Both the position numbers and the translations under genes were made by a program. DNA of 64,000 bases. Source: a virus (taxonomy: Duplodnaviria; Caudoviricetes). Position 1 is the first letter of the stretch; each line of letters starts with the position of its first letter. The DNA is taken from IMG/VR virus record IMGVR_UViG_3300046170_000323, one strand, 5' to 3'. This document shows, in pieces, positions 9,771-29,900 of this stretch. The notes under the pieces are model-generated. The model was not told the DNA's origin, did no database searches, and worked only from the letters and a program-made list of their open reading frames with translations.

Positions 9771-9771
9771 C

Positions 9772-10107: not shown

Positions 10108-10127
10108 CTACGTTCTCTTTTTTCTTT

Positions 10128-10135
10128 TATTTATA
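10128..10135 (-). promoter_or_regulatory. T4-type late promoter TATAAATA
   Basis: Exact consensus in the intergenic gap, 20 nt upstream of the 10107 start. Confidence 0.85.
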
Positions 10136-10151
10136 TAACGCACTCAAAACA

Positions 10152-13100
10152 TTAAGTACCCCACACAACAGTCCCTGCGGCATTTCTGATAATCAATGTT
10201 CTGTTTGATGGATCCTGATGGGAACCAATGAGTGCACCCGCTGCATATACATTACCATCTGCAGAGATATTTTCGATATACATCTGATCGGCATTAGTAT
10301 TATAGAAGAAGTTCTGTTGTCCACCAGAGTTCGGGCCAAGTGTACCATACAGATCTCTCTGTCCAGAACCACCCGCCACAAACGTGACAAACATGTTAGA
10401 CGCTTCCAGTCCACTACCATAGATGTTCTGAACATCAATAGTTGCAGCAGAGTTGCCTGGCCCAGCAGGGCCTTGCAGACCGTCTGAACCTTGGAGACCG
10501 ATGAGACCTTGTTCACCTTGGATCCCCTGTTCACCCTGCATGAATTCACCTTGGATACCCTGTATACCAAGATCACCTTGTGGGCCTTGAATACCTTGGA
10601 CACCCTGTTGACCATCATTACCTGTACCGATTCCACCTTGGACGCCAGGCCCACCTTGGACACCTTGATAACCCTGTGCACCTTGCGCCCCTGCACCTGC
10701 AGGGCCTTGAACTGGTTCACCAGCCTCACCTTGGAATCCTCTGAAACCTTGCAGACCGTCTGAACCAGAGCCTGGGATACCTTGAACACCACCTTCACCT
10801 TGTGGGCCTTGGAAACCTCTAGGGCCTTGGACACCGCCTCCACCAGTAATCGCTTCACCTTGGAATCCACGGAAACCTTGGACACCCTGATTACCTTGAA
10901 GACCTTCTTCACCAATGCCTGGCGGGCCTTGCATACCTTGTGGGCCTTGTGCACCTTGTGCAGTACTATCCGAACCATCAGCACCCTGTGGGCCTTGAAC
11001 ACCCTGCACACCCTGTACACCAGAACCACCGATAAATCCAGCAGTACCTTGGAATCCTTGTGGGCCCTTGAGGGCCTTGTACACCTTGGTTACCAACGTT
11101 ACCAAATCCAGTTCCACCTTGGAAACCCTGAGTACCCTGAGTACCTTGGATACCCTGTGAGCCGGGCGGGCCAGGCAAACCACCTGAACCTTGCGCAGTT
11201 GGGCCTTGAGCACCCTGCATACCTTGGACACCCTGTGAACCAAATCCACCTTGAATACCTTGTGCGCCTTCACCAGCAATACCCTGATTACCTTGAACGC
11301 CTTGGATACCTTGTACACCCTGAGAACCTGCACCAGATGCACCTTGGAAACCTGATCCACCTTGGAAACCGTCAGCACCCTGTGGGCCTTGAATACCCTG
11401 TGCTCCAGTTCCTGTTGAACCCTGTGTACCTAAGTCACCTTGTATACCTTGAATACCCTGCGTACCTTGGTTTCCGATACCTTGAACACCTTGGATACCC
11501 TGATTACCTGCAGTTCCTTGGAATCCGCCAGTACCTTGCGCACCCTGTACGCCTGCACCTGTAGAACCTGCACGAGCAAATGTGACAACGATGTCTGCGT
11601 TGTCTGCAAAGTTTGCACCTGCACCAGTCAGATAATTAACTTCGAACTTCCAGTATCCACCACCATCTGTAATGTCTTCATAATCGAAGACAAAGAAGTT
11701 AGTAGGATCTGCCTTTGATTTAACAACCAAAGAACCTTTGACAAGTCCAGTTACCGTATCAAGTGATGCATAGTAAGTGTCTAAATTTACGAAGTTATCA
11801 TCACGTTCGTCGATATAAATTTCTGTAACATTAGTGAATGTTGAACTATTGAAACGAATATCACCGACTGCAGTGTTAATCTCAGTCGTACCTGCGCCAT
11901 CGAATGTGTAGTCAAATGTTGCACCACCGAAGGAACCCGAATCACCTTGGAAACCAAGATCACCCTGTACACCTTGTGGGCCTTGAACACCTTGAGGGCC
12001 AAGATCAGAAATATTAATTGTTCCACCCATACCAGAATGGAGAGAACACTGGTAGAAGATCTGATCTGGTGCGTTATACGCAACCCTAATTGTTACTAGA
12101 CCAACTGCAGCACCGTTATTCGTGACACCTTGCGTATACTGGTTACCTGTACCAAGTGTACGTGAAGTCTTAAGATAGAATGGATGTCCAGACGCATTTA
12201 CATCAAATGTATATGTGAAACCTCTCAACAACTGTAGTGTTGGGTTGTCTTGTCCATCAACCGTGTATGCAATGTTACCATTATTGGTTACTTCAAATAC
12301 ACGAGATCCCTCTTGACCTTGGATACCTTGAATGCCTTGGAAACCTTGAATACCAAGTGTACCCTGTGGGCCTTGAACACCTTGAATGGCTTCCCCTTGA
12401 ATACCTTGGAATCCTTGGAACCCCTGAATACCCTGAGCGCCTTGAGATCCTTGGAATCCTTGAGATCCTTGTGTGCCTTGGAAACCAAGATCACCTTGAA
12501 CACCTTGAATACCTGTTGGGCCAACTGGGCCAGAAGGCATGAATGAAATGATTGCAGTGTCACCATAACGGGCAGTTGCATCATCCCAAGAAACTGTGTT
12601 TGCACCACCAGAACCTAAAAGAGATTTTTCAATAAATGTAACATCAAACCAACCGTTGTCTTCTTGACCAGCACCACCTGCCCATGTCCAATCATCGATT
12701 TGATAGAGTAGGAATTCAAAGTCATTGTTAGTTGTATCACGAGGCGTTCTGATCATCATCTGACCTTTTGGAACGCCTGGATTTGAATCTATGTAATTGA
12801 ATAGATCGTCAATACGTCTATTACTATCAGATGGTTTATCGTCGAACCAGATTTTGTCAACAGCGTAAACATCTGTAGAAGAGTTTGTACTTCCAGAGAC
12901 CAACGCAAAATACCCAACGCCAGGGAATACATCCCCAGATGTTGAGTTGTTGATCCACTCGAATGTTAGACCACCGTAATAACCTTCAAGGCCTTGTACA
13001 CCCTGTGTTCCTTGAGGCCCTTGAAGACCCTGCAAACCAGTGTCACCAGTTCCACCTTGTGTACCTTGAACGCCTTGATTTCCTTGAAAACCTTTTGTGC

Positions 13101-14052
13101 CTTGTGGGCCTTGTACGCCTTGAGTACCCTGATCACCTTGCAGACCTTGAGTACCTTGTACTCCCTGCGGGCCTTGTTGACCTTGGATACCTTGAATCGC
13201 CTCACCTTGCCAACCTTGCGTACCTTGTACACCTTGGAATGCCTGTGGGCCTTGTGTACCCTGTACACCTTGAAGTCCCTGAGTACCTTGAGGGCCTTGA
13301 GGGCCTTGCACACCCTGACCTGCGAATGCACCGTCTGTACCTTGAACACCTTGGAACCCTTGAGTTCCCTGTGGGCCTTGAGTCCCTTGAACGCCCTGCG
13401 TTCCTTGCGGGCCTTGTGGGCCTTGCAATCCTTGAGTACCCTGATCACCCTGTAATCCTTGGGTTCCCTGCATACCTTGTACGCCCTGATAACCACGATC
13501 TCCTTGAATACCTTGGAAACCCTGAGTACCTTGTGCGCCCTGCACACCTTGGAAACCTCTAAATCCTCTGAAACCTTGGACACCTTTAGCGCCAAGATCA
13601 CCTTGCACACCCTGTGTGCCTTGTACGCCTTGGAAACCTTGTACACCTCTAAATGTACCAATGTTAATCCAGTTTACACCGTCATAAATCCATAGTTCTT
13701 CGTCTGCGTCATCAATGACACCGTCACCGACACTTGCAGAACCAAACGCAGCATTAAGAGTTGCCTGTGGATCTCCACCCGAATCTACATCTGGTACAGA
13801 ACCAATGATTGTAAATCCTGGCCCATATTCACCTTGAATACCTTGGAGTCCATCTGGGCCTTGAAAACCTGTGGTTCCTTGAGCACCTGAAACTGGTATC
13901 CATGACGTTCCATCCGAATAACGGATTTCGTCGGTAATCGTGTAAATTACCGAACCTTTAAACGCAGCAGGATCTAACTGCGCTGGATCTTGTGGGATAC
14001 CATTACCAATCGAAAATCCACGATTAGTAAAAGTGCGAAACCTAGTCGACAT
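10152..14052 (-). CDS. Collagen-like (Gly-X-Gln) fibre protein, ~1299 aa; +1 frameshift at ~11066
   Basis: ORFs 10978-14052 and 10152-11378 join at CAAGGGCCCACAA (extra G). Span 3901 nt = 3n+1. Long QGxQGx tracts interrupted by globular domains. Confidence 0.9.
10480..13640 (-). repeat. Collagen triple-helix coding repeats (GGN NNN CAA/CAG)
   Basis: Four blocks of 9-nt-periodic ccttg/ccctg motifs on the plus strand encoding (G-X-Q)n. Confidence 0.95.
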
Positions 14053-14497
14053 CGTATTCCTCCGCCTGGCCTACCGTATATGACAACGTTGCAGTAATTG
14101 CAAGGTTTGCACTACAACGTGCTTGCATGATATCACCAGAAGCGAAGAACTGTCCGTTAATTGGAATTGGGATTGTGTCATAAGCAGGTACAGGTAAATT
14201 TTTAATTAAATCATAAGTTATCGAATTACTGATTCTATAAATTTCAACATCAACTGTCGCAGTAGCGTTTGTGGTGTTGCATAAAATGAGTGGGGAAATA
14301 ACTTCCCCGATGCCAGGCTCAATTGTTTCACTACCCCCGAAAACAAGTTCGGGAACTCTGAACTGTGGTACAGTAATAACTTCATCAAACTCTGTAGTTA
14401 ATACAGCGTTAAATCCAATTGGCAAAGCATCTGGTGCCTGTGATGTTACGATCACAGTAATCCCAGTGTTTGCATCTTCATATTGTGAGTATGCCAT
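14042..14497 (-). CDS. Small virion-associated protein (151 aa)
   Basis: ORF packed between fibre genes, 11-nt overlap with the downstream start; beta-rich composition. Confidence 0.7.
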   Translation of the reverse strand: MAYSQYEDANTGITVIVTSQAPDALPIGFNAVLTTEFDEVITVPQFRVPELVFGGSETIEPGIGEVISPLILCNTTNATATVDVEIYRISNSITYDLIKNLPVPAYDTIPIPINGQFFASGDIMQARCSANLAITATLSYTVGQAEEYDVD

Positions 14498-14509
14498 GTT
14501 TCTTTCCTT

Positions 14510-17500
14510 TTATACTACAGCTGCTCTACTGTTCGAAGCACGTCTTGCGAGTTTACGAACAGATGAGGTAAATGGTCTTCCTTCGATTCGACCTGTTCTA
14601 CCGTTAATTCTCAAACCTCTTGCGAAGTACTGGTTATTCAATTCGTCTGCACCAGACCATCTTACACGACCACCATCTTCAGAGAGAACCGAAGAAATCG
14701 CAGACGTTGCAGGCCCAAGGTTTCTAAAGTTCAGTGGCAACGCAGTTCTGTTAACACCTGCAGCACCACCGTTAAACTGGTGAGCAATTGATTCAACAAG
14801 TGAACCGAATGTTAACACGTCTGGTCTTAGGACGTTACCTTTCAAACAATCATCAAACAGAGCAGTGATAAATGCACTGTGTGCTCCATCTGGTGAATAG
14901 TTCGCAATAATAAAGTCTCTCATACGATCCCATGTTTTATAGAACGCATATAGAAGATCAGTATTATTTTGACCGTCATCAACCCATGCTCCACCGTTCC
15001 AATAGTATATAGTTCCTTGGTAGAAGTTTATATTTGCATCATCAGAAACGATCCACGCCATATTTGGTTTCAGAGTAAGGTTTGGATCTGACTGCAACGC
15101 ATTACGTGCAGAGATATCCGCCACTGTACCCATGAATCTCAACCCAGGCGTTGTTGCATTGAATACTGGGAATACCTGTTGACCTTTTTGATCGAAGAAC
15201 GATTGTGAGAAAGTTCTTGTCGCTTTAGTCGAACCTTGTTGTCCTGTATTCGGGTTAGTAAACTTGATGTCGTTGACGATAGTCTGCAACAAGTTACCTG
15301 CATCACGTCTTGTCAAGTTAATATCAACAAAGTTATAAGTTGCGTTAACAAATCTTACAACATCATACTGCAGAGGCCCACGTTTCTTCAGAATTACTTC
15401 TTTTGCATCTCTAAATGGTTTTTCAACCCAATCATAATTTGGTTCAATAAGTGTTTGTAGTTCTTTTGTATCTTTATTTATCTGAGTTAGATAGAACATA
15501 TTGGCGAGACCTTCAACTTTATTGGCCTCTACTTCAGTTGCAGTATCATACTTGAGTGACTGACCTTTGTAATCACCTGTAACGATCTTCTTACAAATTC
15601 TACCTAGTTCACGATAGGACTTCGCAGTCGCTTCACGTTGATCTTCTGGGATACGATATACTGAGTTCCAGAAGTAGAAGTCTGCGTTCCAACGAGATGC
15701 ACTGTTACCACCGTAGTTCAAGTCATATGAGAATGCATCTAGTAGGTATCCTACATCACGACGACACTTAGACTTGTTATAGTCAAGTACATTGAACTCA
15801 GTGTTGATGAATTCGATTAACTTGTCTGCGAGTTCTACTTTATTGTCTTCGATAAGTTTGTTCGCACCAACCAAGTCACTTGATACCCATGCAGTATTCG
15901 CTTCCTGTAGGGCAGGGATTGCAGCGACACTATCTTCACGAATCACATCTTCTACGATACCAATCAAGTTAACAACTTCTGTACCCTCAGTTGGAGTCGC
16001 TGGATCACCAGAGATGTCTTGTGCAGTCGTAGTGATAGATGTGTTTGTTGTATCGATCTCTTGAACGATGTTAGACATCAGAAGTTTCATTGTACGATAT
16101 ACATCTGCAGTTTGTCTGCGAGTATCTTCTGGTAGTACAGATACACCGTTTTCGAAGTAGATCTGTGCAGAGATACGAGATGCATAGTTTGTTTCGTACT
16201 GAACATCATGTGATGCAGCATCAACCAAGAAGCCCATATCACGACGACACTTACCACGTGGGAATGATAGTCCATCCCACTCACGAGACACGTAGTCCAC
16301 AACCTTCGTTGCGAGTTCATCAGAGATATCTGAAATCAAGTTCTTAGATGCAATGATGTTACTTGGAACCCATGAAGTGTCTGGTGATACACGGGCAGGA
16401 ATTCCTGATGGATCCTCTGCAAGTGCAGCATCTGCAATCATGTTTGCAAGTTTCATTGCTTCACCCTTAAGATCAGTACGTTCTGGATATACTGCAGGTA
16501 GATGACGGAAGTCTTGTGGTATATGGTTACCAATTACTTGAACAAGAGCGTCAACTTCAGCACTCACAAATGTGTGAGGATAATTACCAGTACCACCAGT
16601 ACCAACATTCATTGTGATCGATGTACGTGTTACACCAGTAATCGGACATGGTTTTCTGAAGTAAGGATGATGTGCAGCGGGTGAGGAGTGGTTTACTGCA
16701 CCACTACCCATGTCGCATGACATTACGATACTTTCATCTGCCATCCAGATTGCATCACCAACTTTTAGTGCGTGTGGGCCAACTTCTGCAGTAAAGATAC
16801 CAGTTAATGGATCGTATGTGGCAGTGGTTGGGGTGAAACGTGCACCAAATCTGTTAGATATAGTTGGTTCAACTGGAAGACGTTGTAAGACTGTCTCCAT
16901 TGTTTTACCAAGATGCATGAATGCACGACGAGTAGGATCACGTTGATCTTTAGGAAGTGTATTGATTGCATTTTCAAAATAGATTTCTGCATTCTTGTGA
17001 GTTGCCCAGTTACCATCGTACTGAAGATCGTGCGAGATACCATCGATGATATAACCCAAATCACGACGACACTTAGACTCACTGTATGCAAGACCATTGT
17101 AGTTATCTGCAATATAAGTGTTGATTGCAGACTGCATTGTTCCTTTTTCTCTTTCGATAATATCATACATGACACCACCAGAAGGATATGTTGACTTGAG
17201 GAAGACACTGTTGTCAACCATTGCAGGTAGACCATCGATACCATCATCTGCAAGAACTGCATTGGCAATGATTTCGATAAGTTCTTCAACCTTAGTACCA
17301 TGTGCAGTGGATGTTGCAGTCAGACCAGAAGTTACTGGATCAAGTGCGTTACCTGCAGTTTTAGATACACCGATAAGTCTTACAATGTTATCTGCCATTG
17401 TTGCGATATGTTGGAATACATCTGCAGTTGGGCCACGTTGATCAGCAGGTAGAACACTTACTGCATTTTCGAAATACAGTCTAGCGTTGTTTACTGTCAT

Positions 17501-20500
17501 CACGTTTGTGCCATTTTCTTCAGCACCGTATTGCATATCCCAAGATACTGCATCAAGGATGTGAGAGATATCTCTTTCACACTTCGCAACATCATATGTT
17601 AGAGATGGATGAACGATTGCGATATATGCAGTTGTTTCTGCCTGTAAGAATGCTTTGTTTGCTTGCAGGTTTTCTCTTGCACGAATACCGTTTGAATATC
17701 CATCTGCAGACCAGATTGGTGTGGTGTTTGCATTTGGATTTGTCATCATATCAATGATTGATTCGAACCCTTGATCAAGTTGTTCTTCAAGAAGATATGT
17801 ATCATCGTACTTAGATAGTACTTTCTCTTCTTTGCGGATGATGCCTCTCAGTTTGTCTTTAACAAATCTTAGACCACCTACCAACTCACTGATCTGAGTT
17901 TCACGAGTACGAGTTGCACCTGCAGTTCCTGTCAAGTAAGAAGTTGCAGCCTGAACGAGTGGATACTCCTGACCAGTAAATGGTGTATTAGGTGAAGTCC
18001 ACTTGACCGCATCGATTAGGAAACCTGTGTCTCTGAAACACTTATCACCATCGTAAGTATAGTATGAATCATTCAAGAAGGCAACAGTTTCTTCAATCAA
18101 GAACTTACGGTTTGACTGAATTTGATCACGTGCAAATGTTCTAAGTGGAGTGTATGTTGGAGCATCTGCGACTGCAGGGATGTTTTCGTTTGTACGATCA
18201 TCCACAATATTTGCAATTACCAACATCAGATCCTGAACTCTCTGCGCAACCTGTGTAGATGTTGCAGTACCAGAGAAGTTCTGTGCAACAGTTTGATACT
18301 GTACATGTTTGATTGCGTCTGCAGTTGCACTTACGAATGTATGTGCACCAGCGTAACCACCTGCGTTGAATCCAGTCAAAGTAACAGTAGTTGCATCAAC
18401 TGATTTAACAGGCCATGGAGTCAAGTATGCTGGGTCTGGATAACCATCCCCTGCGACTGCACGTGGATGTGAAATCTGAACAGTAGATGCAGTAGCAGTG
18501 TTTACACACTCGAATGTGATACCTTCAGTTTCGAACCAGATGAAATCACCTTCTAGGATATCATGCGAACCAAGAGTCAGTACCATAGATCCTTCTACTG
18601 GATCGTAAGCAACATCAGTTGGAGTGTATGCACCTTCAAAGTGTGGTTCAATAACTGTTTCCAAAACAACTTTTTCTGCACGATCTGCGAGGTGGGTAAA
18701 TGCCGCCTGTGTTGCATCGTACTGATATTCTGGTAACAAGTTGATAGAGTTAATGAAGTACGCTTCTGCAGCCTTGACTGTTGCAGCGTTACCACCGTAG
18801 AGTACATCTTCAGAAACCGCATCGACCAAGTAACCAGTGTCACGAGTACATTTAGACTGTTGGAAACCAACACCGTTATATGTTGCGTTAATATACTCAG
18901 TTACTTCTGTCTGTAGTTTCTCTGTTAGACCATTGATAAGTTTAGTTGCAGTTTGGAACTCTTCTGCATATCCAGTGTTGCCTGGCCCAAACTCGAATGG
19001 TGAGAACTTCGAAGTTCTGTATGCCTGTTGTGGGCCACCAACGTTGTAAGAGATGAGACCACCTTGTGCACCATCGATACCACCAGAACCACCTTTAACA
19101 ACTGCTTCAAGTGCAGTAGAACCACCACCGACAATTGTACCTTTTGCAGCAGTCTGATAGAATGCAGTTCCAATATCGTTTGGTTCAATCTCTGCAGGGA
19201 GACGTAGTAGTGTATCTTCTTCAATAGAGTCAGAAACAATATTGACAAGATCTTCTACTCGTTGACCCATAAAGTCAGAGAAGTATTTCTTGATTGCACC
19301 AGTTGTTGCAGATACAAACCCATGTTCTTCTTCATAACCACCTGCATCACCCACATCTAGTGTGATAGTATTTGCAGTAGTCGCAAGAACACGAACTGGT
19401 TTTTCGTATACTGGATCAGTTGGACGTGGATGTATAATCTCTTGAACTGGTGAACCACAAGACAATGTGATTGACTCTGGATCAAAGATCATGTAATCAT
19501 CTTGTACAAAGTTGTGCGCTTCACCAAGATCGATAACCATGATACCAGAAATTGGATTGTATGTCACATCAGTTGGTGTGTATTCTACATTAGTCCAAGA
19601 TGTAGGAGTAACAGCATTACCAGTTGTAGGAGTAACAGTTTCGTTACGTGCAAGTTTCTTGGCAACGTTTGCAATATGCTGGAACGCTTCTGCAGTAATA
19701 TGTCTTTGTTCTACTGGAAGAACAGAAACTGCGTTTTCAAAATAAAGTCTTGCAACGTTGATAGATGCAACGTTTGAACCATGTTGGATATCATAAGATG
19801 CAGCGTCAACTAGAACTCCGACATCTCTTTCGCATTTTGCAACATCGTATGTGAACGATGGATACTCAACTGCCAACCATGCAGTGATTTCTGCCTGTAG
19901 GAATGCTTTGTTAGATTGAATGATACCACGAGTGTTCAATGCATCGTTAGACACATATGAGTCACCGAAGTTGATTACATCTGCGGCACTTGTACCGTTT
20001 GTTACGATATCGATAACTTCATCAAATGCAGCTTCAGAACGTGTCTGTGCAGTACCTGATATTTTCGCAGATACCTGTTGTTTCAACCATGTGAATGCAC
20101 CAACTGTTTCAGTTAACTGATCGTTAACAACTGTGTCTGCACCTTGAGTACCGATACGATAACCTTTACCCATGTAAACAGCGTTGTAGTTAGAACCAGT
20201 AAGAACGTCACGTTTTACTGCATCGATAAGGAACCCTGTATCTCTTTCACACTTCGCACTGTCATAAGTGAAGTAAGTGTTTGCAAGATATCCGACAACT
20301 TCATTTGCAAGGAAGTCACGGTTCGCTTGAAGTGTTTCGAATGCGTTTACTTCATCTACGTTTGCACGAAGTACCGCAACCGCATTATCTGCGACACGTA
20401 CGAATGTATGTGCACCACCAGTACCAACACCCACATTTACTTGGATTGTATTAATATCAGGCGTTGCAGTAATTGTCAACGGTTTTCTGTATGGTGGATC

Positions 20501-23500
20501 TGATGGACGTGGATGAGAGATCTCTGATAGGTTGTTGTCAGAACCACATGTGAATGTGAACGATCCTGGCATCAGTTCTACACGATCCCCTGCACTCAAA
20601 CCATGATTTGAAATAGTCAGAGTAAATACACCAGTTCCTACGGTGTATGCAACACCAGTTGGAGTCTTGAATTCTTCGATCATCGCTGGATCTGAGAATG
20701 TTACTACGTCATCACGTACCGCACCTTCTGTTGCACGTACGAATGTGTGTGCAGTACCATTTGCATAACCACCCACATTAATAGTGAATGTGGTTTCAGT
20801 TGCAGCCTTGATCTTAATTGGTTTCTTGTTCCACGGATCACTCAGACGAGGATATGCATGTTCAGTCTGATTACCATCCAACGCACATGTGAAGACGATA
20901 CTTTCTTGTTCCAGTGCAATGTACTGACCTACTTGTAGGTTATGGACACCGACTGTAACGACCATGTCACCAGTTGCAGTATCATAAGTTGCAGTGGTTG
21001 GAGTATAAGTCTTTTTACGTGTTTCGTTGTATACAGAAACTGAGTTTGGATCTGCCTTATAGAATGTATGGACACCAGTGTATCCACCTGCATCACCAGC
21101 ATTAACTGTGATTGTAGTAAGACCAACTGCAGTAATGTCAAGTGGTTTCTTGTAATTGTCTGTGTCACTACGTCTTGGATGTGAGATGACAACGTTATTG
21201 GCATCACAATAGAAACTAATAGACTCAGGCGCAAACATAACTTGATCATCAGTTGTCAGACTGTGAGTACCGATAGTGACAACCATTTCACCTGTCAAAG
21301 GATCGTATGTAGCATTCGTTGGAGTATAAGAACGACCAGAACCTTTCATGATATGAATGATTTCGTCGAATGCGTTCCCTGCAGTTCCGATTGCAAAGTT
21401 GTCATGTACCAAGTGATGTACTGAATCTACCTGTGCAGATACAAATGTGTGAACACCAGTATAACCATTTGCATCACCACTTTGGAATGTGATAGATGTC
21501 GCATCCGCTGCAGTGACAACGAATGGTTTGTTATAATTTGGATCCGTTGGGTTTGGATGTGAGTCCGTACCAATGACAGCAGTACTGGTATTTGCACATG
21601 AGAATGTAATCGCTTCTGGTGCAAGTTTGATAGAGTCACCTACTTCGATATCATGTGTACCAAGTGTAAGTGTAGTAATACCACTTAGTGGATCGTATGT
21701 TGCATCAGTAGGCGTATACTTCGCCTGTGTCATATCTGCAACAAGACCTTTAAGTTCCGACACCGCACCGACTGTTTCAGGCAACTGATCTCCGACTACT
21801 TCAGATGCAGTACCTGCGTAGTAACCAACACCTGTCTGTACAGAGTTCCAGTTGGTTCCCAACATCATGTCTTGTTGTACTGCAGGCAAGATGTACTGTT
21901 GAACATCTCTCTCACATTTTGCACTGTCGTAGATGAAGAAGTTGTTGTCAATCCAACCCATCATATAGTCTTGGATGTACTTCTTGTTAGCCTGTAATTG
22001 TTTACGTGCATTTTTCTTGTTCGCATCAATACCAACATCGTCAGAGAATAGAATTCCCTTACCGATAACTTGTACAGCGTTTTCAAGTGCACCTGTGAAA
22101 CTATGCGCTCCAGTATAACCACCTGCATCACCTGAGTTGAATGTGATGGTATATGGAGTAATAGATGTTACCTGTAGAGCATTCTTAAACCATTTGTCTG
22201 CTGGACGTGGATGTGAAATAGACACCAACTGAAGTGTAGTAGTATTCGCACACTGATATGTCAAACCGCCTGGAGCAATCTCAATTAAGTCACCCGCTTC
22301 GATTCTGTGGATATCATCGAATGTCACAACAGTCACACCTGTAGCAGGATCATATGTAGATCCAACTGGAGTGTAGCAGTTTTCTGCAAGACGAATACAA
22401 TCTGCATCTGCAGACTTGAAGTAATGGATGTTTGTGTATCCACCAGCATTACCAACTTGAAGGACGATAGTTGTCTCTGTTACTTCAAGGATTGAAATCG
22501 GTTTCATGAATGCAGGGTCTGTAGCACGTGGATGAGTGATCTCACCATCTTTACCAGACAATCCACACTCAAATGTGATTGATTCTTTTTCGAGGATGAT
22601 CTTCTGATCTACATGGAGACGGTGTTGACCGATTTCAACTTCCATGATACCAGAGATTGGATCATACTCTACGAATGTAGGTGTATATGTTTTACGTTTT
22701 TCTTCCAATGCATCAATGATATTATCGAATGCAGAGTCAGAACGAATTGCACCAATGAACGAGTTCGCATCGATGATTTCATTTGTTTGTTCTTTTAGTC
22801 TCTTATATGCAGCGACTGTTTCGTCACGTTGGTTGTTGATAACCTTTGCAGCAGCGTTCATATAGTACGCATTACCTGCAGTGACAGAGTTGTAGTTCGT
22901 ATCCAACATTAGATCTTGTGCTACTGCAGGCAAGATGTAATCTTGTGTATCACGACGACACGCAATAGAATTGTATGCGAAGAACTCGTCGTTATCTTCG
23001 ATCCAATCGATTAATTCGTTTTCAATAAATTTACGGTTGTCTTGAATCTGTTTACGTGCATTGGTATATGCAGTTGCAGTTTCGTTGTTTCCAACTTCTG
23101 TGAATACAATAGGAGATGCATACTCTTCACCGTTCTCAAGAATGTTCAAGAGTTCGTCATAAGAAGTATTTGCACGTTCTAGAATTTCAGTATTCGCATT
23201 CGCAAAGATAGTCCCTAGACGACCTTGCAGATATCTGTTTGCACCAGCAGTCTCTTCCAACTGTTCGCCAGGCACAACATAAGAAATTGGTGAACGATAA
23301 GTGATACCAGACAAACGACCCCAATAGTTTGAACCAGTCTGAATGTCTTGTGACAGTTTGTCAAGAATGATACCAGTATCACGATAACATTTCTCTGCGT
23401 CATAACCTTGATATCCAAGTCCACCAGAAGAGGTGTTGGATGTAAGGTAATCGACCATGTCATCAATGATGTTATTGGCGTTCTGAAGAATTGAATCACC

Positions 23501-25804
23501 GAAGGCAGTATTACCACCTGCGTTTAAATCAATCTGTATAGTAGTGTCTCTTGGTGCATAGAACTGTGTAGTTCCTTTTGCCCTCATAGAGATGTCACCA
23601 AACTGTGTACCTGAGTTGTTGAGTGTAACCTGTCCACCATTCAATGCGTAGAACGCACAACGTGTGAAGATTGACAATGAACCAATACCGTTAACACCAG
23701 CACCATCACGTGCAACGTAACCGATACCGTTCTGTGTACGAGGTGTAAAACCAAATGTCAATAGGTAAGTGTAGAGTGAGTCTGGATCAAGAACACGTCT
23801 GTCTGCAAGCACACAACCACCACCACGTCCCACAAGTGGGTTCGGGAAGTCGTCAATACCGATGACTGCAATGTTACCTGTACCACCTGATTCTGAGATG
23901 ATTGTATCACCTATGTTGATTTCACCTTTTAGGTTACGAACGTAGACACGGTCATCTGTTGCAACATCTGCATCCCAAGATACAAAACCAACTGCACCTG
24001 AACCAAATACAATCTCATCACCTTCAGAGAATGTGCCTGAGTGACCAACTTCCATATAGATTTCACGTCCAAGGTCTGCGAGAGTACCTTTAGAGTTAAA
24101 TGGTTGTAGTGGTGGTTCAACATCTGCACGAAGGAAGTTTGACAACTGAGAGGAGTCACGAATGTATGGAGATCTTCTTAGTTTAGCGCCAGGACGATAT
24201 GCAATCGCAAATCCACCTTCTGGGAAATCGAAGTTATCAACTTTCCAGTTTGTGTATGAGAAACCTTGTACGTAACAACCAGAACCTACGAGAACTGCGT
24301 TTTCGAATTCATAGCCAGGCAACGCTTCGATCACTGTTGCATACTGACCAGAAGTAGATGTCAACGAACAATCATCTGGAAGGGCGATACCACCTTTTGT
24401 GTAGTATGTGCCAGGCCCACATGAGATGTGAACCGCATTGTTTACATCGTTACGTGAATAAACTCCACCCGCTTTTTCTAATGCGAGTTCTGCAGCACGT
24501 TCTAGTGTACGAACTGGTTGAAGGACTGTGCCAGGATTTCTGTCATCACCAGAAGACGCTTCAACGTGTACCTTAAGTGCCTTTGCAGTAGTCTTAGAAA
24601 TCTCATCAAAGAACTGACGATATGTGATACGTTCTGTCTCACCAGTCTTAACATTCTTAAGAGCGAACCAAGAGTTTTCATCAATCTTTGGTTCGAACTG
24701 GTTGTCGAGTTCCATGTCGAAGTCGACAAGATCTGGACGGTTGATTGTCGCATCATTGATTGCAGCATCTTCAATCTTACCACCAGTCATAGTGGATTCG
24801 GAGATACCTGTGTTTGACATTGAAGAAGATTCGATGGTTGCATCAACCAACGAGATGTCTGACAACTCACCAGTGAAGGTAGAGTTGGCAATCACTGAGT
24901 CTTTGATAAGACTATCTTCAAGTGTCGTGTTTGTAAATACGTTATTGTTACCAGTACCGTCTGAGAAATCAGAGTCGATAATGGTCATGGTATTCGCAGT
25001 AGAGTTTGCAAGTGCACCATTGACAAAGGTAGAAGAGTCAATGTCAACGTTATTCGCAGTGGAGTCAGTAATTTCACCAGTAGTGAAAGTTGAGTTCGTC
25101 ATTGCAACGTTGTTTGCAGTACTATCGAATATACCACCGTCTGTGAATGTAGACGATGTGATTGCAATATTGTTGGCAACCGAATCTCTAATGATACCCT
25201 GATTAAACTCAGAATTGTCTAGGACAATGTTATTACCAGTGCTGTCTGCGAGAGTACCGTTCTCAAAAGAAGAGTCGGTAATCGAGATATTGTTTGCAGT
25301 AGAATCAAATATTGCACCATTAGAAAATGTTGATTCAGTGATTTCTACATTGTTCGCCGTCGAATCAGTAATAGTTGAATCATCAATCGTAGAGTTTACG
25401 AGAGTAACATTATTACCGAAGACGGTATCCATTGTACCGTTATCGAAACTAGAGAATGTGATTGTTAGGTTGTTGGCGTTTGAGTCACGTAGATCACCAT
25501 CATGGAACAGAGAGGCATCAATGTCAACACGATTTACATCTGTATCATTGATTGTACCACGATTATATTCGTTATCGTTCATGATGTTGTTATTCATCAC
25601 GTTTTCGAATATAGTTGTACCAGAGATCTTACCACCAGTAATGGTGATTCGGTCAAATATTTCGTACTGGATCGCCTGAACCAGCTCTTTTCTGGTTATA
25701 TTCTTTGTACCGTCATCACCTTGTACGAGGTTAACGATGACGAATAAGTCTTCCGTCCTCGTATTGGCGCCGGTAATCGAACCTAATTCAGAAATTTTTG
25801 ACAT
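14510..25804 (-). CDS. Giant 3764-aa virion fibre/adhesin-like protein: beta-solenoid N-terminus, pectin-lyase-like region, phycobiliprotein-like and Cys/His repeat modules
   Basis: Single uninterrupted ORF following a late promoter. The repeats are visible in the translation (see findings). Confidence 0.9.
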   Translation of the reverse strand: MSKISELGSITGANTRTEDLFVIVNLVQGDDGTKNITRKELVQAIQYEIFDRITITGGKISGTTIFENVMNNNIMNDNEYNRGTINDTDVNRVDIDASLFHDGDLRDSNANNLTITFSSFDNGTMDTVFGNNVTLVNSTIDDSTITDSTANNVEITESTFSNGAIFDSTANNISITDSSFENGTLADSTGNNIVLDNSEFNQGIIRDSVANNIAITSSTFTDGGIFDSTANNVAMTNSTFTTGEITDSTANNVDIDSSTFVNGALANSTANTMTIIDSDFSDGTGNNNVFTNTTLEDSLIKDSVIANSTFTGELSDISLVDATIESSSMSNTGISESTMTGGKIEDAAINDATINRPDLVDFDMELDNQFEPKIDENSWFALKNVKTGETERITYRQFFDEISKTTAKALKVHVEASSGDDRNPGTVLQPVRTLERAAELALEKAGGVYSRNDVNNAVHISCGPGTYYTKGGIALPDDCSLTSTSGQYATVIEALPGYEFENAVLVGSGCYVQGFSYTNWKVDNFDFPEGGFAIAYRPGAKLRRSPYIRDSSQLSNFLRADVEPPLQPFNSKGTLADLGREIYMEVGHSGTFSEGDEIVFGSGAVGFVSWDADVATDDRVYVRNLKGEINIGDTIISESGGTGNIAVIGIDDFPNPLVGRGGGCVLADRRVLDPDSLYTYLLTFGFTPRTQNGIGYVARDGAGVNGIGSLSIFTRCAFYALNGGQVTLNNSGTQFGDISMRAKGTTQFYAPRDTTIQIDLNAGGNTAFGDSILQNANNIIDDMVDYLTSNTSSGGLGYQGYDAEKCYRDTGIILDKLSQDIQTGSNYWGRLSGITYRSPISYVVPGEQLEETAGANRYLQGRLGTIFANANTEILERANTSYDELLNILENGEEYASPIVFTEVGNNETATAYTNARKQIQDNRKFIENELIDWIEDNDEFFAYNSIACRRDTQDYILPAVAQDLMLDTNYNSVTAGNAYYMNAAAKVINNQRDETVAAYKRLKEQTNEIIDANSFIGAIRSDSAFDNIIDALEEKRKTYTPTFVEYDPISGIMEVEIGQHRLHVDQKIILEKESITFECGLSGKDGEITHPRATDPAFMKPISILEVTETTIVLQVGNAGGYTNIHYFKSADADCIRLAENCYTPVGSTYDPATGVTVVTFDDIHRIEAGDLIEIAPGGLTYQCANTTTLQLVSISHPRPADKWFKNALQVTSITPYTITFNSGDAGGYTGAHSFTGALENAVQVIGKGILFSDDVGIDANKKNARKQLQANKKYIQDYMMGWIDNNFFIYDSAKCERDVQQYILPAVQQDMMLGTNWNSVQTGVGYYAGTASEVVGDQLPETVGAVSELKGLVADMTQAKYTPTDATYDPLSGITTLTLGTHDIEVGDSIKLAPEAITFSCANTSTAVIGTDSHPNPTDPNYNKPFVVTAADATSITFQSGDANGYTGVHTFVSAQVDSVHHLVHDNFAIGTAGNAFDEIIHIMKGSGRSYTPTNATYDPLTGEMVVTIGTHSLTTDDQVMFAPESISFYCDANNVVISHPRRSDTDNYKKPLDITAVGLTTITVNAGDAGGYTGVHTFYKADPNSVSVYNETRKKTYTPTTATYDTATGDMVVTVGVHNLQVGQYIALEQESIVFTCALDGNQTEHAYPRLSDPWNKKPIKIKAATETTFTINVGGYANGTAHTFVRATEGAVRDDVVTFSDPAMIEEFKTPTGVAYTVGTGVFTLTISNHGLSAGDRVELMPGSFTFTCGSDNNLSEISHPRPSDPPYRKPLTITATPDINTIQVNVGVGTGGAHTFVRVADNAVAVLRANVDEVNAFETLQANRDFLANEVVGYLANTYFTYDSAKCERDTGFLIDAVKRDVLTGSNYNAVYMGKGYRIGTQGADTVVNDQLTETVGAFTWLKQQVSAKISGTAQTRSEAAFDEVIDIVTNGTSAADVINFGDSYVSNDALNTRGIIQSNKAFLQAEITAWLAVEYPSFTYDVAKCERDVGVLVDAASYDIQHGSNVASINVARLYFENAVSVLPVEQRHITAEAFQHIANVAKKLARNETVTPTTGNAVTPTSWTNVEYTPTDVTYNPISGIMVIDLGEAHNFVQDDYMIFDPESITLSCGSPVQEIIHPRPTDPVYEKPVRVLATTANTITLDVGDAGGYEEEHGFVSATTGAIKKYFSDFMGQRVEDLVNIVSDSIEEDTLLRLPAEIEPNDIGTAFYQTAAKGTIVGGGSTALEAVVKGGSGGIDGAQGGLISYNVGGPQQAYRTSKFSPFEFGPGNTGYAEEFQTATKLINGLTEKLQTEVTEYINATYNGVGFQQSKCTRDTGYLVDAVSEDVLYGGNAATVKAAEAYFINSINLLPEYQYDATQAAFTHLADRAEKVVLETVIEPHFEGAYTPTDVAYDPVEGSMVLTLGSHDILEGDFIWFETEGITFECVNTATASTVQISHPRAVAGDGYPDPAYLTPWPVKSVDATTVTLTGFNAGGYAGAHTFVSATADAIKHVQYQTVAQNFSGTATSTQVAQRVQDLMLVIANIVDDRTNENIPAVADAPTYTPLRTFARDQIQSNRKFLIEETVAFLNDSYYTYDGDKCFRDTGFLIDAVKWTSPNTPFTGQEYPLVQAATSYLTGTAGATRTRETQISELVGGLRFVKDKLRGIIRKEEKVLSKYDDTYLLEEQLDQGFESIIDMMTNPNANTTPIWSADGYSNGIRARENLQANKAFLQAETTAYIAIVHPSLTYDVAKCERDISHILDAVSWDMQYGAEENGTNVMTVNNARLYFENAVSVLPADQRGPTADVFQHIATMADNIVRLIGVSKTAGNALDPVTSGLTATSTAHGTKVEELIEIIANAVLADDGIDGLPAMVDNSVFLKSTYPSGGVMYDIIEREKGTMQSAINTYIADNYNGLAYSESKCRRDLGYIIDGISHDLQYDGNWATHKNAEIYFENAINTLPKDQRDPTRRAFMHLGKTMETVLQRLPVEPTISNRFGARFTPTTATYDPLTGIFTAEVGPHALKVGDAIWMADESIVMSCDMGSGAVNHSSPAAHHPYFRKPCPITGVTRTSITMNVGTGGTGNYPHTFVSAEVDALVQVIGNHIPQDFRHLPAVYPERTDLKGEAMKLANMIADAALAEDPSGIPARVSPDTSWVPSNIIASKNLISDISDELATKVVDYVSREWDGLSFPRGKCRRDMGFLVDAASHDVQYETNYASRISAQIYFENGVSVLPEDTRRQTADVYRTMKLLMSNIVQEIDTTNTSITTTAQDISGDPATPTEGTEVVNLIGIVEDVIREDSVAAIPALQEANTAWVSSDLVGANKLIEDNKVELADKLIEFINTEFNVLDYNKSKCRRDVGYLLDAFSYDLNYGGNSASRWNADFYFWNSVYRIPEDQREATAKSYRELGRICKKIVTGDYKGQSLKYDTATEVEANKVEGLANMFYLTQINKDTKELQTLIEPNYDWVEKPFRDAKEVILKKRGPLQYDVVRFVNATYNFVDINLTRRDAGNLLQTIVNDIKFTNPNTGQQGSTKATRTFSQSFFDQKGQQVFPVFNATTPGLRFMGTVADISARNALQSDPNLTLKPNMAWIVSDDANINFYQGTIYYWNGGAWVDDGQNNTDLLYAFYKTWDRMRDFIIANYSPDGAHSAFITALFDDCLKGNVLRPDVLTFGSLVESIAHQFNGGAAGVNRTALPLNFRNLGPATSAISSVLSEDGGRVRWSGADELNNQYFARGLRINGRTGRIEGRPFTSSVRKLARRASNSRAAVV
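15300..23500 (-). repeat. 11 Cys-bearing helical repeats with (K/A)CxRD plus one degenerate copy
   Basis: Cys codons at ~23388, 22959, 21915, 20250, 19833, 18849, 18039, 17580, 17070, 16248, 15765; the Cys-less copy INLTRRDAGNLL is at ~15310. Confidence 0.9.
16560..22700 (-). repeat. 9 beta-rich ~95-aa repeats YTPTxxTYDPxxG...H...C...HP...HTFVxA
   Basis: Nine copies counted in the translation. Confidence 0.9.
24850..25560 (-). repeat. 15-aa periodic DSTANNxxIxxSxFxxG repeats (beta-solenoid-like)
   Basis: Visible near the N-terminus of the giant protein. Confidence 0.8.
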
Positions 25805-25856: not shown

Positions 25857-26777
25857 TCAATCTTTGGATTTTTCTTCCAGAGCTTCCACCTTATCATTTA
25901 ATTCTTTAATTGCTTGAATAAGCAATGGAATAATGTTATCATAACGAACCGCCAAATGACCTTGTTCATCCATTGGGAAGGTGACGTTGGGTAGAACCTT
26001 CTCTACCTCTTGGGCAATGACCCCTGCAACTCTTTCCTCTGGTTTGTTGATGTAGTTAAAAGTATAACCATTAATCTGTTCTACTTTATCTATTGCACCA
26101 TCGATTACTTCAATGTTATCCTTGAGTCGAATGTCTGAAGCATTGTATGCGGTAACAACATCACCAGTGAAGTAACCATCACCGAGCACCGTTAAATTAC
26201 CGTCTATTTCTGTATCCCCATCGAACACAAGAGCTCCGCCTGGCCCACTGAATGTTCCTGAGTATGATATGTTGTTTGCGTATAAATCGTCTGTGGTTAC
26301 ATCATTTTGGAATATTGCATTGTTACCTGCGTAGTCTGGTGCAGTAACAGTACCTGATGGAGAGATCTTAAACTTTCTGTCACCAGTACCAGTATCTATA
26401 ATGAAATGCGCTTGGGATGAATCTTCCATCCCGATATCCCAAGAAATATTTCCATCAGTATATCTTGTTCTACCACCGCCTGCACCGAAAGTGAAGGTTG
26501 AACAAATTGCATCTGCTAGTGCGTTGTGAATAGAAGGAGAACCAAGAGTAATACTTCCACCGTTTGTATCTGACTCAATATAATCAGTTGCGACATTTGC
26601 AGTTACTAACCCTGCAGTGAAGTTACCTAAGAGAGTTGCATTACCAGTCGTTGTGTCACCACTCGCCGAGGCAGTCATCGCTTCAGAACGAATGATACCA
26701 GTTAATTCATTTGTCTTATCAAACCAGTTCTGGAAGGTTTGGGTTACCGTAATATCGGCTATCGATGGTTTTGCCAT
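25857..26777 (-). CDS. Tail-fibre protein with C-terminal peptidase S74 intramolecular chaperone
   Basis: SDIRLKDNI...INGYTFNY...GVIAQEVEKVLP...VRYDNIIPLLIQAIKEL signature followed by a coiled coil. Confidence 0.9.
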   Translation of the reverse strand: MAKPSIADITVTQTFQNWFDKTNELTGIIRSEAMTASASGDTTTGNATLLGNFTAGLVTANVATDYIESDTNGGSITLGSPSIHNALADAICSTFTFGAGGGRTRYTDGNISWDIGMEDSSQAHFIIDTGTGDRKFKISPSGTVTAPDYAGNNAIFQNDVTTDDLYANNISYSGTFSGPGGALVFDGDTEIDGNLTVLGDGYFTGDVVTAYNASDIRLKDNIEVIDGAIDKVEQINGYTFNYINKPEERVAGVIAQEVEKVLPNVTFPMDEQGHLAVRYDNIIPLLIQAIKELNDKVEALEEKSKD

Positions 26778-26971
26778 TACTTATTTTCCAATTTTTCTAT
26801 TTTTTCGCACATACGTACAAGAGTTTCTTGTATTTCTAATACATCTGTCTGAAGTTTATCAATCTTGCGATAATAAAGTCTTTCCATTTTATATTTATGC
26901 AGGGCCTGCGCATCCGTATTCAAAATCGCATTCGAGTGTTTGTCCCTTCTGATAGATGCTGGAGAACTCAT
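26777..26971 (-). CDS. Small coiled-coil hypothetical protein (64 aa)
   Basis: Overlaps both neighbours in operon fashion. Confidence 0.65.
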   Translation of the reverse strand: MSSPASIRRDKHSNAILNTDAQALHKYKMERLYYRKIDKLQTDVLEIQETLVRMCEKIEKLENK

Positions 26972-29900
26972 GTCAAAGCAATGCCTCTATAATCTTTTAT
27001 GATAGGTGCAGTGTGAATGTTTGGCGACAATAATTCAATTCTAACCGCAAACTTTCTATAAGTTTTAAAAGTACCTGCACGACTAATGTATTGATAAACA
27101 CCAGCGTTAAGGGAACTGGTAGGTAGTCTATATCTAAATTCACGATAATCTTCCATGTTTGTTTGTGAAGAGAAGTTCTCAATACCTTCAAACATTTCCA
27201 ATTCAACCCAATCCACTTCATCAAATGCAATACTATCAAAAGTATTCTGCGCTCTGATGTAACATTTAATATCACTACCAGATGGTCTGTACGCAGATAA
27301 AATCAAATTAAAGTCTTCTGCATCGAAGTCCTCTGCGAGTTCTACAACCTTAGAAACAAAACTTGCAGTTGCATCTGGAGTATTTGTTATATCGTATTTA
27401 TAGGCAAGTAACTTACATGTTTCCATATCAATAAATGGAGACGAGGTTGAGTTACCACCATTTTCCATACCAACTTTGATTTCGAATTTCAAATTACCCG
27501 ACAAGTTGTTTGTTCTACTGTAAATCAACGCACCCTTTGCATTAAAGTGGTTGTTGTCATTGAACTTCATTGGCATGTCATATGTTGTACCAACTGCAGC
27601 AGGTGGAATAAATGTACCTGACAATTGAGTTTTTGTCACTGAGTCGTTGACACGTTGAATAAATGGTTGTACATAACTTAGTGTGATGTTATCAATTGAA
27701 GAGATCTCTGCAGTTGCAGCACTATCTTCACCAACGATATCACTTCCCACTGCGAAAACCTTTCCAGATCTTGCAGTAGACTTTTCAAGATACATGGTTG
27801 TTGGATCGATTACGTCATAGAGACACAAGTCACCCACAACAATAGGAGTACCTACAGCGTTAGAGAACGTTTGATTTGAGTTCTTGTTTGCAGTAATTGA
27901 ATCTGCACTAACGGCGGTTACTTTAAAGATATCATAGTTGGAAGTGTTTGCAGCCTCCGCAATCTTCATAAAGTCACCAATCGCATATACAGTATCAAAA
28001 TTCGCACCACTTGTTCTGGTGATTGTATTGTTTGCATTTGCCATACCGACAACTTGATCAGTCCCTGCAGTCTGCCAAACTTTCTCACCTTTTCTAAATT
28101 GACCAGTGATATCAGTTACTGTAAAGAATTCATGATTATTGTTTGTCAGAGTAATAGAACCCTGAGATGCATTATAATCATGACGGTAAAGATTAAACTT
28201 AACGTCTTCGTCTTGGTATGATTTCCATGCAGAGTTGTTTGTAGATGTGAATAGAACTCCATCACCCCAGTCTTGAACGATTGGTTTACCTTGCGTATCG
28301 CCAGGCGTCAAATCATTCTGACCAACTTTCGATGTGAATACCAAATAGCCAGGATCGTTCGCATCTGGTTGAATTACAAATGCGTACTCTTTTTCTACTT
28401 CAAGGATAACTGGTGCTTCAAACTCAATAGTCGTTGCAATACTTGCATCATCTGAGATGTTGACTTCTGAAGGTTGCAAGTGTACTTTCGAGAATGGAAT
28501 AGTTTCACTTGATGGATAACCATTAACCACTTCACGCAACATAACAGTAACACCGTTAATACCACCACCACCTGAAAGTTGTGATGACGACTTACGTTTG
28601 AAATACAGATCCAACTTAGATGCCGCAACTGTGTTACTACCACGTCCCATACCTTTCTTGAGGAAGAAAGTCTGTGCGAGAGGATCACCATTGTTATCGC
28701 CAGGATCTGGTGGGGGTGGTGGACGGAATGTCACACTACGGTTTGATGTAGTTTGTGTCATAGACGAAAGTGGCATACGAGTAGACATACTTGCCTTCTC
28801 GACACTAAAGTTATATGCACGATATGCAATCTTCGCACGTGATGTTGCAGCGGAATCGATTTGACTATACAAATCTGTATCGACAATCTCCAACATGCGT
28901 TCACCTACAAAGAATGTATCTGCAGGTAGTCTGAATACTGCACGTAGAGTACCGTTTTCATCTGTGGCGATAGGTTGTCCATTAAATGGGCCATTGCGTT
29001 CTACATTCTTCGCTTTGTTGACCAGTGTACCCTTACAGACGTTAGACTGAATAGATGCTCTGTCAAAGAAGAAGTAGTGATTTGTATTTGGTCTTAGTCC
29101 AGTTACGTAAATACCAATATCACGTGGAGACATGTACGGTTGGAACTGGAAGTTAGTAACAAAGTCACCAACTTGATTTGTAGAGTTACCCCTATCAATA
29201 TTCACGGTTCCGAACGTATCTGTAAACGTTACTGTACCACCGTTTGATCGTGCACGTCTTAACTGCGCTTGGATATCTGCAGTAAATTGATTTGTGTTGA
29301 TCTGAGCATCTGTTAAAGGAATAAACTTTTGAATTGCTTCCGCAAAGTCCACGAAGGGTTGTTCGAAATCAATCTCTACTGGATTTGTAGTTGTGTCATA
29401 AGTCGCATCATATGGTGGAGAGATGTCTGGAGTACCTCTATAAGAATAGAAGTTACTTACAGCATTCCTGTATCCTGTTGCATACTTTTGACTAATTAAT
29501 GAAACATGTGCATTTCTTGACAAAGTTCCAACTTCTGGTATGACACCCACTGCAGGGGCAGGGAATGCAGTCGCACCAGTAGATGTACGATAGATGAGGT
29601 CAAGATCAAATGTTGAAACAGAAGGCGTCATCACTTTTTTATTAAAGTGTACCGCTGCGTTAAACTTTGGATCTCTCGTGTTTGCAAGAGACATGTCATT
29701 GAATGGATCTACTATAAACCCATTCTTGAATCTTGTCAAGCCATTTTCGTCAAGAACAGTTAAATTATTTACTTCTTGTTCCAACTGATTCAATGAAGTG
29801 TAATATACAAGTCTATCGATTTTATTTTCGATGGATTGAATATCTTTCATTGTATAACGTTTAGTGCCTTTTGGTTTTGCACGAACTGCATACTCACGTT

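Follow-up and report, generated by a model that had tools for sequence, protein, structure and literature searches.

Tandem globin-like domains with the phycobiliprotein bilin-site triad in a giant tail-fibre-type phage protein: a candidate acceptor for phage-made bilin

The heme oxygenases (HO), PcyX and PebS reductases and 5-aminolevulinate (ALA) synthase encoded by phages have been characterised biochemically, and no acceptor is known in phages of non-photosynthetic bacteria (PMC11480375). The characterised marine PcyX yields phycoerythrobilin, and in 2024 the role of hemO, pcyX and alaS in phages of alphaproteobacteria was stated to be unknown, with bilin biosynthesis-associated globins (BBAGs) or phytochromes only speculated upon (PMC11480375). 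Among cellular proteins, BBAG-1 and BBAG-3 are phycobiliprotein-related globins of non-photosynthetic organisms that have a CXRD motif and are associated with HO and ferredoxin-dependent bilin reductase (FDBR) (Rockwell, Martin and Lagarias 2023, PMC10151467). CXRD is the bilin attachment motif, and BBAG-1 and BBAG-3 load bilins without lyases (PMC10151467). A full-text search of the literature gave no account of a phage, virion or tail protein in which a bilin-binding or phycobiliprotein-like domain had been recognised. Here we describe a giant open reading frame (ORF) of the IMG/VR virus record IMGVR_UViG_3300046170_000323, of which we analyzed a stretch of 64,000 nucleotides (hereafter the window). 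Its repeated domains belong to a family that keeps the phycobiliprotein attachment triad and offers a phage-encoded candidate acceptor for phage-made bilins.

Repeated domains of the giant protein

The ORF lies on the minus strand and encodes a protein of 3764 aa with 30 cysteines. Exactly 11 C-x-R-D motifs are found in the translation (at aa 806, 949, 1297, 1852, 1991, 2319, 2589, 2742, 2912, 3186 and 3347), compared to a mean of 0.09 and a maximum of 3 in 20000 composition-preserving shuffles. All of them fall inside helical units of ~135 aa that can be aligned with one another and in which the Cys, Arg, Asp and one Tyr are invariant and the Lys at position -1 is nearly so. A first-pass annotation made from the letters of this DNA had described 11 helical repeats with this motif; the motif count and the mutual alignment bear it out, and every sequence string that it quoted was found in the translation. 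To these we add a 12th, C-terminal unit, detected by hidden Markov model (HMM) domain matches and aligned columns, where Thr takes the place of Cys and Arg-Asp is retained (T-R-R-D). The last unit of all four orthologues examined also has a Thr in the Cys position. Nine beta modules of ~105 aa are interleaved with the helical units, several of them being inserted within a unit, ahead of its last helix. From the N-terminus to the C-terminus, the features are:

14510..25804, minus strand: giant ORF of tail-fibre/virion-structural type (ORF list; PHROGs phrog_5342 and phrog_701)
24785..25579, minus strand: N-terminal pentapeptide-like repeats, aa ~76-340 (PF13599 at 34.8 bits, below the cut-off of 38; visible in the translation)
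23525..24607, minus strand: conserved N-terminal non-repeat region, aa ~400-760 (45% identity to aa 57-699 of the 1040-aa three-domain protein of the related record G002)
23090..23509, minus strand: globin domain 1, aa 766-905, CYRD at 23378-23389 (motif and unit alignment)
22694..23080, minus strand: N-terminal helices of globin domain 2, aa 909-1037, CRRD at 22949-22960, followed by beta modules 1-2
20375..22693, minus strand: beta modules 1-6, aa 1038-1810, with globin domain 3 between them (alignment of the nine modules)
21725..22036, minus strand: N-terminal helices of globin domain 3, aa 1257-1360, CERD at 21905-21916, followed by beta modules 3-6
19949..20371, minus strand: globin domain 4, aa 1812-1952, CERD at 20240-20251, the modelled domain (AlphaFold2, Foldseek, VIA-align)
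19589..19948, minus strand: globin domain 5, aa 1953-2072, CERD at 19823-19834, with beta module 7 inserted after it
18635..18970, minus strand: globin domain 6, aa 2279-2390, CTRD at 18839-18850, with beta module 8 ahead of the last helix
17705..18160, minus strand: globin domain 7, aa 2549-2700, CFRD at 18029-18040 (motif and unit alignment)
17255..17701, minus strand: globin domain 8, aa 2702-2850, CERD at 17570-17581 (motif and unit alignment)
16844..17191, minus strand: globin domain 9, aa 2872-2987, CRRD at 17060-17071, with beta module 9 inserted
15905..16369, minus strand: globin domain 10, aa 3146-3300, CRRD at 16238-16249 (motif and unit alignment)
15425..15886, minus strand: globin domain 11, aa 3307-3460, CRRD at 15755-15766 (motif and unit alignment)
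15035..15409, minus strand: globin domain 12, aa ~3466-3590, TRRD (HMM domain matches, aligned columns)
14513..15034, minus strand: C-terminal domain, aa 3591-3764, common to short and giant family members

Residues 3134-3763, which include the C-terminal domain, are 39% identical to aa 447-1040 of the G002 protein, and a similar C-terminal motif was seen in distant family members. The region of aa ~400-760 has no Pfam match.

The nine beta modules span positions 16529-22693 of the window (aa 1038-3092) and follow the consensus YTPT..Y..G..H...C...HPR..DP..KP...GGY..HTF, in which T, P, Y, G, H, C, P, H and F are invariant among the nine aligned copies. A possible metal site would consist of the His, Cys, His(-Pro-Arg) and His(-Thr-Phe) that all nine copies keep. 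Neither a Pfam match nor a meaningful PDB sequence match was found for the module, and a link to E1_FCCH-like viral clusters in the Atlas (score 0.92) is a lead only. An AlphaFold2 model of globin unit 6 together with its inserted beta module (aa 2277-2543) was poor, with a predicted local distance difference test score (pLDDT) of 61.6 and a predicted template-modelling score (pTM) of 0.42, and was used for the order of secondary structure only: helices, beta module, final helix.

Fold of the repeats and the domain family

The AlphaFold2 model of unit 4 (aa 1812-1952) is confident (pLDDT 82.5, pTM 0.80) and has seven helices. When it was compared with the PDB by Foldseek, the top 50 matches were all phycoerythrin, phycocyanin, allophycocyanin, ApcE or smURFP, with template-modelling (TM) scores of 0.60-0.72 and E values of 5e-3 to 7e-2. 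An exhaustive VIA-align comparison with 48,161 chains gave a Z of 15.2 for far-red allophycocyanin (root-mean-square deviation (rmsd) 2.2 over 120 aa) and 15.0 for the bilin domain of ApcE, followed by 12.8 and 11.9 for the bilin domains of photocobilins and by at most 11.2 for heme globin sensors. Entries named 'Phycobilisome protein' and BBAG-1 POZ53552 were among the top matches in the clusters of the AlphaFold database (AFDB). The same fold recurs in BFVD with TM scores of up to 0.85, in separately predicted fragments of cyanophage tail proteins, and no such fragment is named as a globin there.

The predicted structure contains the globin-like helical core of phycobiliproteins (helices B, E, F, G and H). 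It aligns to allophycocyanin residues 31-159, the domain being ~135 aa long and followed directly by the next. Because the alignment starts only at about residue 31, we consider the X/Y hairpin to be absent, that is, the N-terminal helices that serve the alpha-beta monomer and the ring assemblies of phycobiliproteins. HMM and HMM-HMM alignments place the motif on Cys84-x-Arg86-Asp87 of helix E. A profile built from the 11 units and searched against 177,635 PDB sequences had phycocyanin beta as its second-best match (E 0.2), with the Cys on Cys82. An hhalign comparison of 45 phage domains with 53 diverse phycobiliproteins, gathered from cyanobacterial loci, gave P 7e-5 over 111 columns; the two C/R/D triads coincide in it, as do the Tyr and the Pro turn. 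The score was 36.3, compared to 11.6 with the target reversed and a median of 20.2 with 8-column block shuffles.

On this modelled structure the repeats very probably adopt the phycobiliprotein-type globin fold without the X/Y helices. The first-pass annotation had proposed as much, and had read C-x-R-D as the Cys84/Arg86/Asp87 position; the model, Foldseek and VIA-align agree with the former, the profile match and the hhalign register with the latter, and the AlphaFold and Foldseek comparison that it had suggested returned phycobiliproteins throughout the top 50. Since a PF00502-level score and the X/Y helices are both missing, the domains are not phycobiliproteins. By the predicted fold they are a new branch of the bilin-binding globins, the phycobiliprotein-like fold and CXRD that mark this group in the wide sense (PMC10151467) both being found, and the family is probably related to phycobiliproteins and BBAGs.

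The domain family is large and has no name. A profile search of 1.84 billion sequences recovered 1360 representative proteins at E<=1e-3 and 547 at <=1e-30. Every one of the best 150 is a multi-domain protein (up to 36 domains in a chain, lengths of 843-6382 aa), and their 1629 domain copies retain the triad at 95-99% (Cys in 1526/1597, Arg in 1524/1598, Asp in 1578/1598). In two of these 150 proteins every cysteine is a motif cysteine. P0003 and P0004 (6382 and 5984 aa) have 36 matched stretches, with 34 aligned globin domains each bearing the motif Cys. In the P0008 and P0054 lineages the linker composition is very different, whereas the K-C-x-R-D core and the C-terminal motif are the same. 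Among isolate phages, related giant proteins were found only in cyanomyoviruses (315 records, 24-30% identity), whose proteins have 2-5 copies of the domain, mostly with K-C-x-R-D (P-HM2 gp7, S-SSM4 CYXG_00059 and S-MbCM7_026); two such domains are present in P-HM2 gp7.

Bilin genes in relatives and the proposed role

No heme oxygenase or bilin reductase gene was found in the window, as the first-pass annotation had stated. Co-occurrence was consequently tested in relatives; the record of the nearest one, G001, ends short of the expected cassette region. Some genomes were picked by a scan for the DNA encoding K-C-x-R-D-x-G-Y-I-x-D-A, which takes no account of bilin genes; the domain is present in each of the 30 long records examined from it. 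The informative genomes are listed with their length and completeness:

G002, 201 kb, terminal repeats, 100%, picked by clamp-loader similarity only: 1040-aa protein with three domains; HO and FDBR present; no psbA
G007, 183 kb, 91%, picked by FDBR similarity: domain present; HO and FDBR present; no psbA
G008, 221 kb, 100%, picked by FDBR similarity: 3674-aa giant protein with 11 C-x-R-D; HO and FDBR present; no psbA
G023, 364 kb, 100%, picked by DNA motif: domain present; HO and FDBR adjacent; no psbA
G032, 134 kb, 70%, picked by DNA motif: domain present; HO and FDBR adjacent; no psbA
G053, 275 kb, 77%, picked by DNA motif: domain present; HO and FDBR adjacent; no psbA
G033, 131 kb, 71%, picked by DNA motif: domain present; HO and FDBR not found; no psbA
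G054, 284 kb, 100%, picked by DNA motif: domain present; no HO or FDBR; psbA and psbD present

All four psbA-less carriers that are at least 90% complete (G002, G007, G008 and G023) thus have adjacent HO and FDBR genes, as do two of the three that are 70-77% complete (G032 and G053, not G033). FDBR identity to G002 is no more than 39% for G023, 35% for G053 and 28% for G032, which indicates that these are deep, separate lineages. The sole complete carrier without the cassette, G054, is a cyanophage, as its psbA and psbD indicate, and its host makes bilins. As a base rate, FDBR is found in 25 out of 50,697 isolate phage records, 24 of which are cyanophages; phiM12, Cr30 and HTVC008M have neither the globin domain nor FDBR. 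The pattern is therefore that carriers have a source of bilin, their own or that of the host, while the converse fails once (Pelagibacter phage Mosig, below) and the cassette was not found in G033. The domain locus and the cassette are ~80-120 kb apart in complete genomes, and for this reason fragments less than ~55% complete, where one feature is rarely seen with the other, were treated as uninformative. The association with HO and FDBR that characterises BBAGs accordingly holds in the relatives at the level of the genome and not as neighbouring genes.

These data suggest the following explanation, which as a whole we judge somewhat likely. The giant protein would be associated with the tail fibre or baseplate, its shaft being a chain of 12 truncated globin domains and nine beta modules. 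Late in infection the domains would be loaded with bilin made by the phage's own heme oxygenase and PcyX-type reductase (phycoerythrobilin, provided that the reductase acts as characterised PcyX does); cyanophage relatives would use the bilin of the host. According to established phycobiliprotein chemistry, the Cys would form a thioether bond to ring A of the bilin, the Asp would bind the pyrrole nitrogens and the Arg a propionate, so that up to eleven bilins per chain are predicted. Attachment would most likely be autocatalytic, as in BBAG-1, BBAG-3 and ApcE, because no CpeT- or CpeS-type lyase is encoded in the nine related records. Attachment of bilin to the domains is plausible and is favoured by the genomic context, and we lean towards it. 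The pigment may serve the fold as a structural cofactor, or it may absorb light or act as a protectant.

A bolder version is attractive, though we regard it as quite unlikely: the fibres would be pigmented, with tens to hundreds of covalently bound bilins per virion, the particle itself would absorb light, and absorbed light would control fibre conformation or adsorption. Phycoerythrobilin lacks the C15=C16 double bond of photoswitching bilin receptors, so a light response would need another mechanism. If such fibres do exist, the so far unexplained light-dependent adsorption of some cyanomyoviruses, among them S-PM2 and P-HM2 with the two domains in its gp7, would gain a molecular basis, and the presence of hemO, pcyX and alaS in phages of heterotrophs would be explained. 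Should the bilin-acceptor explanation be true, the range of bilin-binding globins would come to include structural proteins of viruses, the 'auxiliary metabolic' bilin genes would have to be seen as genes of virion assembly, and light-dependent phage adsorption could be approached from a testable lead.

Several observations weigh against a bilin-loaded fibre. The structural model was computed from a shallow alignment of the 11 paralogues. One out of 60 block shuffles reached the real hhalign score, and the C-x-R-D helix alone gives ~20 of the 36 score units. Because the block-shuffle controls put so much of the sequence signal in the motif helix, the similarity outside the motif is modest, and it is chiefly the predicted structure that speaks for the whole fold. 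PF00502 was not reached: it gave no row in an hmmscan of the window ORF at E up to 1, and the G001 orthologue scored 12.7 bits against a cut-off of 22.2, so that the PF00502 match proposed as a check in the first-pass annotation was not obtained. The co-occurrence sample is small and partly linked by phylogeny, and G033 has the domain with no cassette found. Pelagibacter phage Mosig has HO and FDBR but no globin domain and zero C.RD; the cassette therefore does not require a globin-domain acceptor, and the bilin of Mosig must serve something other than C-x-R-D globin domains. The expected co-occurrence with bilin genes thus stands for HemO and a PcyX-like reductase in complete relatives and does not extend to Mosig. 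No CpeT (PF06206) or CpeS (PF09367) was found in nine related records, E/F-type lyases not having been searched for. The virion location of the giant protein, finally, is deduced from homology and gene position.

In Mosig (MT647606) the HO/FDBR pair lies at 5445-6681, directly upstream of neck and tail-sheath genes and beside a putative ferrochelatase.

Part of this evidence, namely the modest match outside the motif helix, the PF00502 score, Mosig, G033 and the missing lyase, together with a 12th domain without Cys, would also be expected if the domains were chromophore-free globin-fold spacers of the fibre shaft. The Cys, Arg and Asp would then be structural, acting in helix packing, a salt bridge or inter-chain contacts, and the link to bilin genes would reflect common descent among a small number of phage lineages from marine and fresh waters. 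We think this unlikely, though it deserves to be taken seriously: what is kept in 95-99% of the 1629 copies is exactly the triad of the bilin site, in the homologous position, the structure matches bilin-binding globins best and not heme or ligand-free ones, and the cassette recurs in four lineages with FDBRs 28-39% identical and is missing in the psbA carrier.

It is improbable that the C-x-R-D site binds another ligand, be it biliverdin, heme or, in receptor binding, a host-surface molecule. BBAG-2 and photoglobins do bind biliverdin (PMC10151467), the photocobilin domains match with a Z of 12.8 and heme globin sensors with up to 11.2, and tail-fibre proteins often carry binding domains. BBAG-2, however, has no CXRD (PMC10151467), whereas the phage family keeps it; HO always has an adjacent FDBR in the carriers where it was found, which argues for a reduced bilin; and up to 36 near-identical sites per chain would be unusual for receptor recognition. 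That the resemblance is due to chance or to modelling, a helical repeat and a short motif having steered AlphaFold to a remembered phycobiliprotein fold, is extremely improbable, since the shallow alignment of paralogues, the poor second model with a beta module (pLDDT 61.6) and the marginal Foldseek E values (5e-3 to 7e-2) are outweighed by a Z of 15 with rmsd 2.1-2.5 over ~120 residues, above heme globins, by three independent sequence methods that agree on family and register, by the same fold in separately predicted BFVD models of relatives (TM up to 0.85) and by a genomic association that is independent of any model.

Genomic setting and comparison with known systems

In PHROGs, the giant ORF matches the 'tail fiber' family phrog_5342 (E 3e-125) and the 'virion structural protein' family phrog_701 (E 5e-123), and its relatives are annotated as 'virion structural protein'. 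Its neighbours are baseplate genes that resemble gp5, gp6, gp8 and gp48, and two fibre genes, one with collagen repeats and the other with an endosialidase-type chaperone domain. Profile match and gene position, the two marks of the giant tail-fibre and virion proteins of T4-like phages, are thus both found, and the gene belongs to a tail-fibre/baseplate module, in keeping with the virion-fibre type assigned to it in the first pass. As weak evidence, a late-promoter-like TAATAAATA precedes the start codon by ~35 nt. The gp6 homologue is nearest to the Sinorhizobium phages phiM12 and phiN3 (38%) and Caulobacter phage Cr30, and near relatives of the window phage are without psbA. Based on these two features we take it to be a marine T4-like phage with a non-photosynthetic, probably alphaproteobacterial host, the type of host that the first-pass annotation had considered. 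A cyanophage identity, considered because the isolate relatives of the giant protein are all cyanophages, was rejected on the same grounds.

Just upstream of the giant ORF, a 306-aa ORF (25857-26777, minus strand) has an endosialidase-type chaperone end (Peptidase_S74, 58.9 bits), which is typical of self-cleaving tail fibres. Downstream are a 151-aa ORF without a family match (14042-14497, minus strand) and a GC-rich (47-49%) gene for a collagen-triple-helix tail fibre of 1024 aa (10978-14052, minus strand), the former overlapping the start of the latter. Two further ORFs on the minus strand, 31373-32548 (391 aa) and 26968-31428 (1486 aa), overlap by 56 nt, and their matches fall on successive portions of shared families (phrog_358 positions 1-319 and 583-1250; DUF4815). 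Possible readings are a single gene broken by a frameshift, a programmed shift, and two genuine genes. An Hsp20-like ORF at 55369-55788 is 41% identical to an ORF beside the HO/FDBR cassette of G053.

Photoglobins and photocobilins (PDB 8j2w and 8j2y), which are B12 photoreceptors, share a bilin-binding globin fold with the phage domains, with Z of 12.8 and 11.9. They differ in binding biliverdin without CXRD (PMC10151467), in being fused to a B12 domain and in being cellular regulators.

The giant 'gp7-like', 'short tail fiber' or 'virion structural' proteins of cyanophages have the same K-C-x-R-D domain family in a baseplate/fibre neighbourhood, and none of those examined is annotated as globin or phycobiliprotein-like. 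They differ from the window protein by fewer globin domains, other repeat types and bilin-making hosts, and many of these phages have cpeT. In S-MbCM7 (NC_023587), only 2 kb separate the giant 'short tail fiber' gene (6871-18045) from a cpeT-like bilin lyase homologue upstream of it (4322-4852).

With phycobiliproteins and the ApcE domain, the phage domains share the core (Z 15.2 and 15.0, rmsd ~2.2 over 117-120 aa), a C-x-R-D helix in register, and the conserved Tyr and Pro turn. In contrast to phycobiliproteins, they have no X/Y hairpin, the loop ahead of the Cys helix is ~9 residues shorter, identity is 13-22% with PF00502 below threshold, and they occur as 2-36 tandem copies in tail proteins, often with a beta module before the last helix. 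The host, moreover, is non-photosynthetic, and no CpeT/CpeS lyase is encoded in the nine related records.

The comparison with BBAGs is based on the fold match, the motif and their description in PMC10151467. Like BBAG-1 and BBAG-3, the phage domains have CXRD with no CpeT/CpeS lyase found, an absence that fits the lyase-free attachment of these two proteins, and BBAG-1 POZ53552 is among their top AFDB fold matches. Unlike BBAGs, which are single-domain cellular proteins encoded beside FDBR, the phage domains form arrays within a structural protein of the virus, and its gene lies ~80-120 kb away from the cassette.

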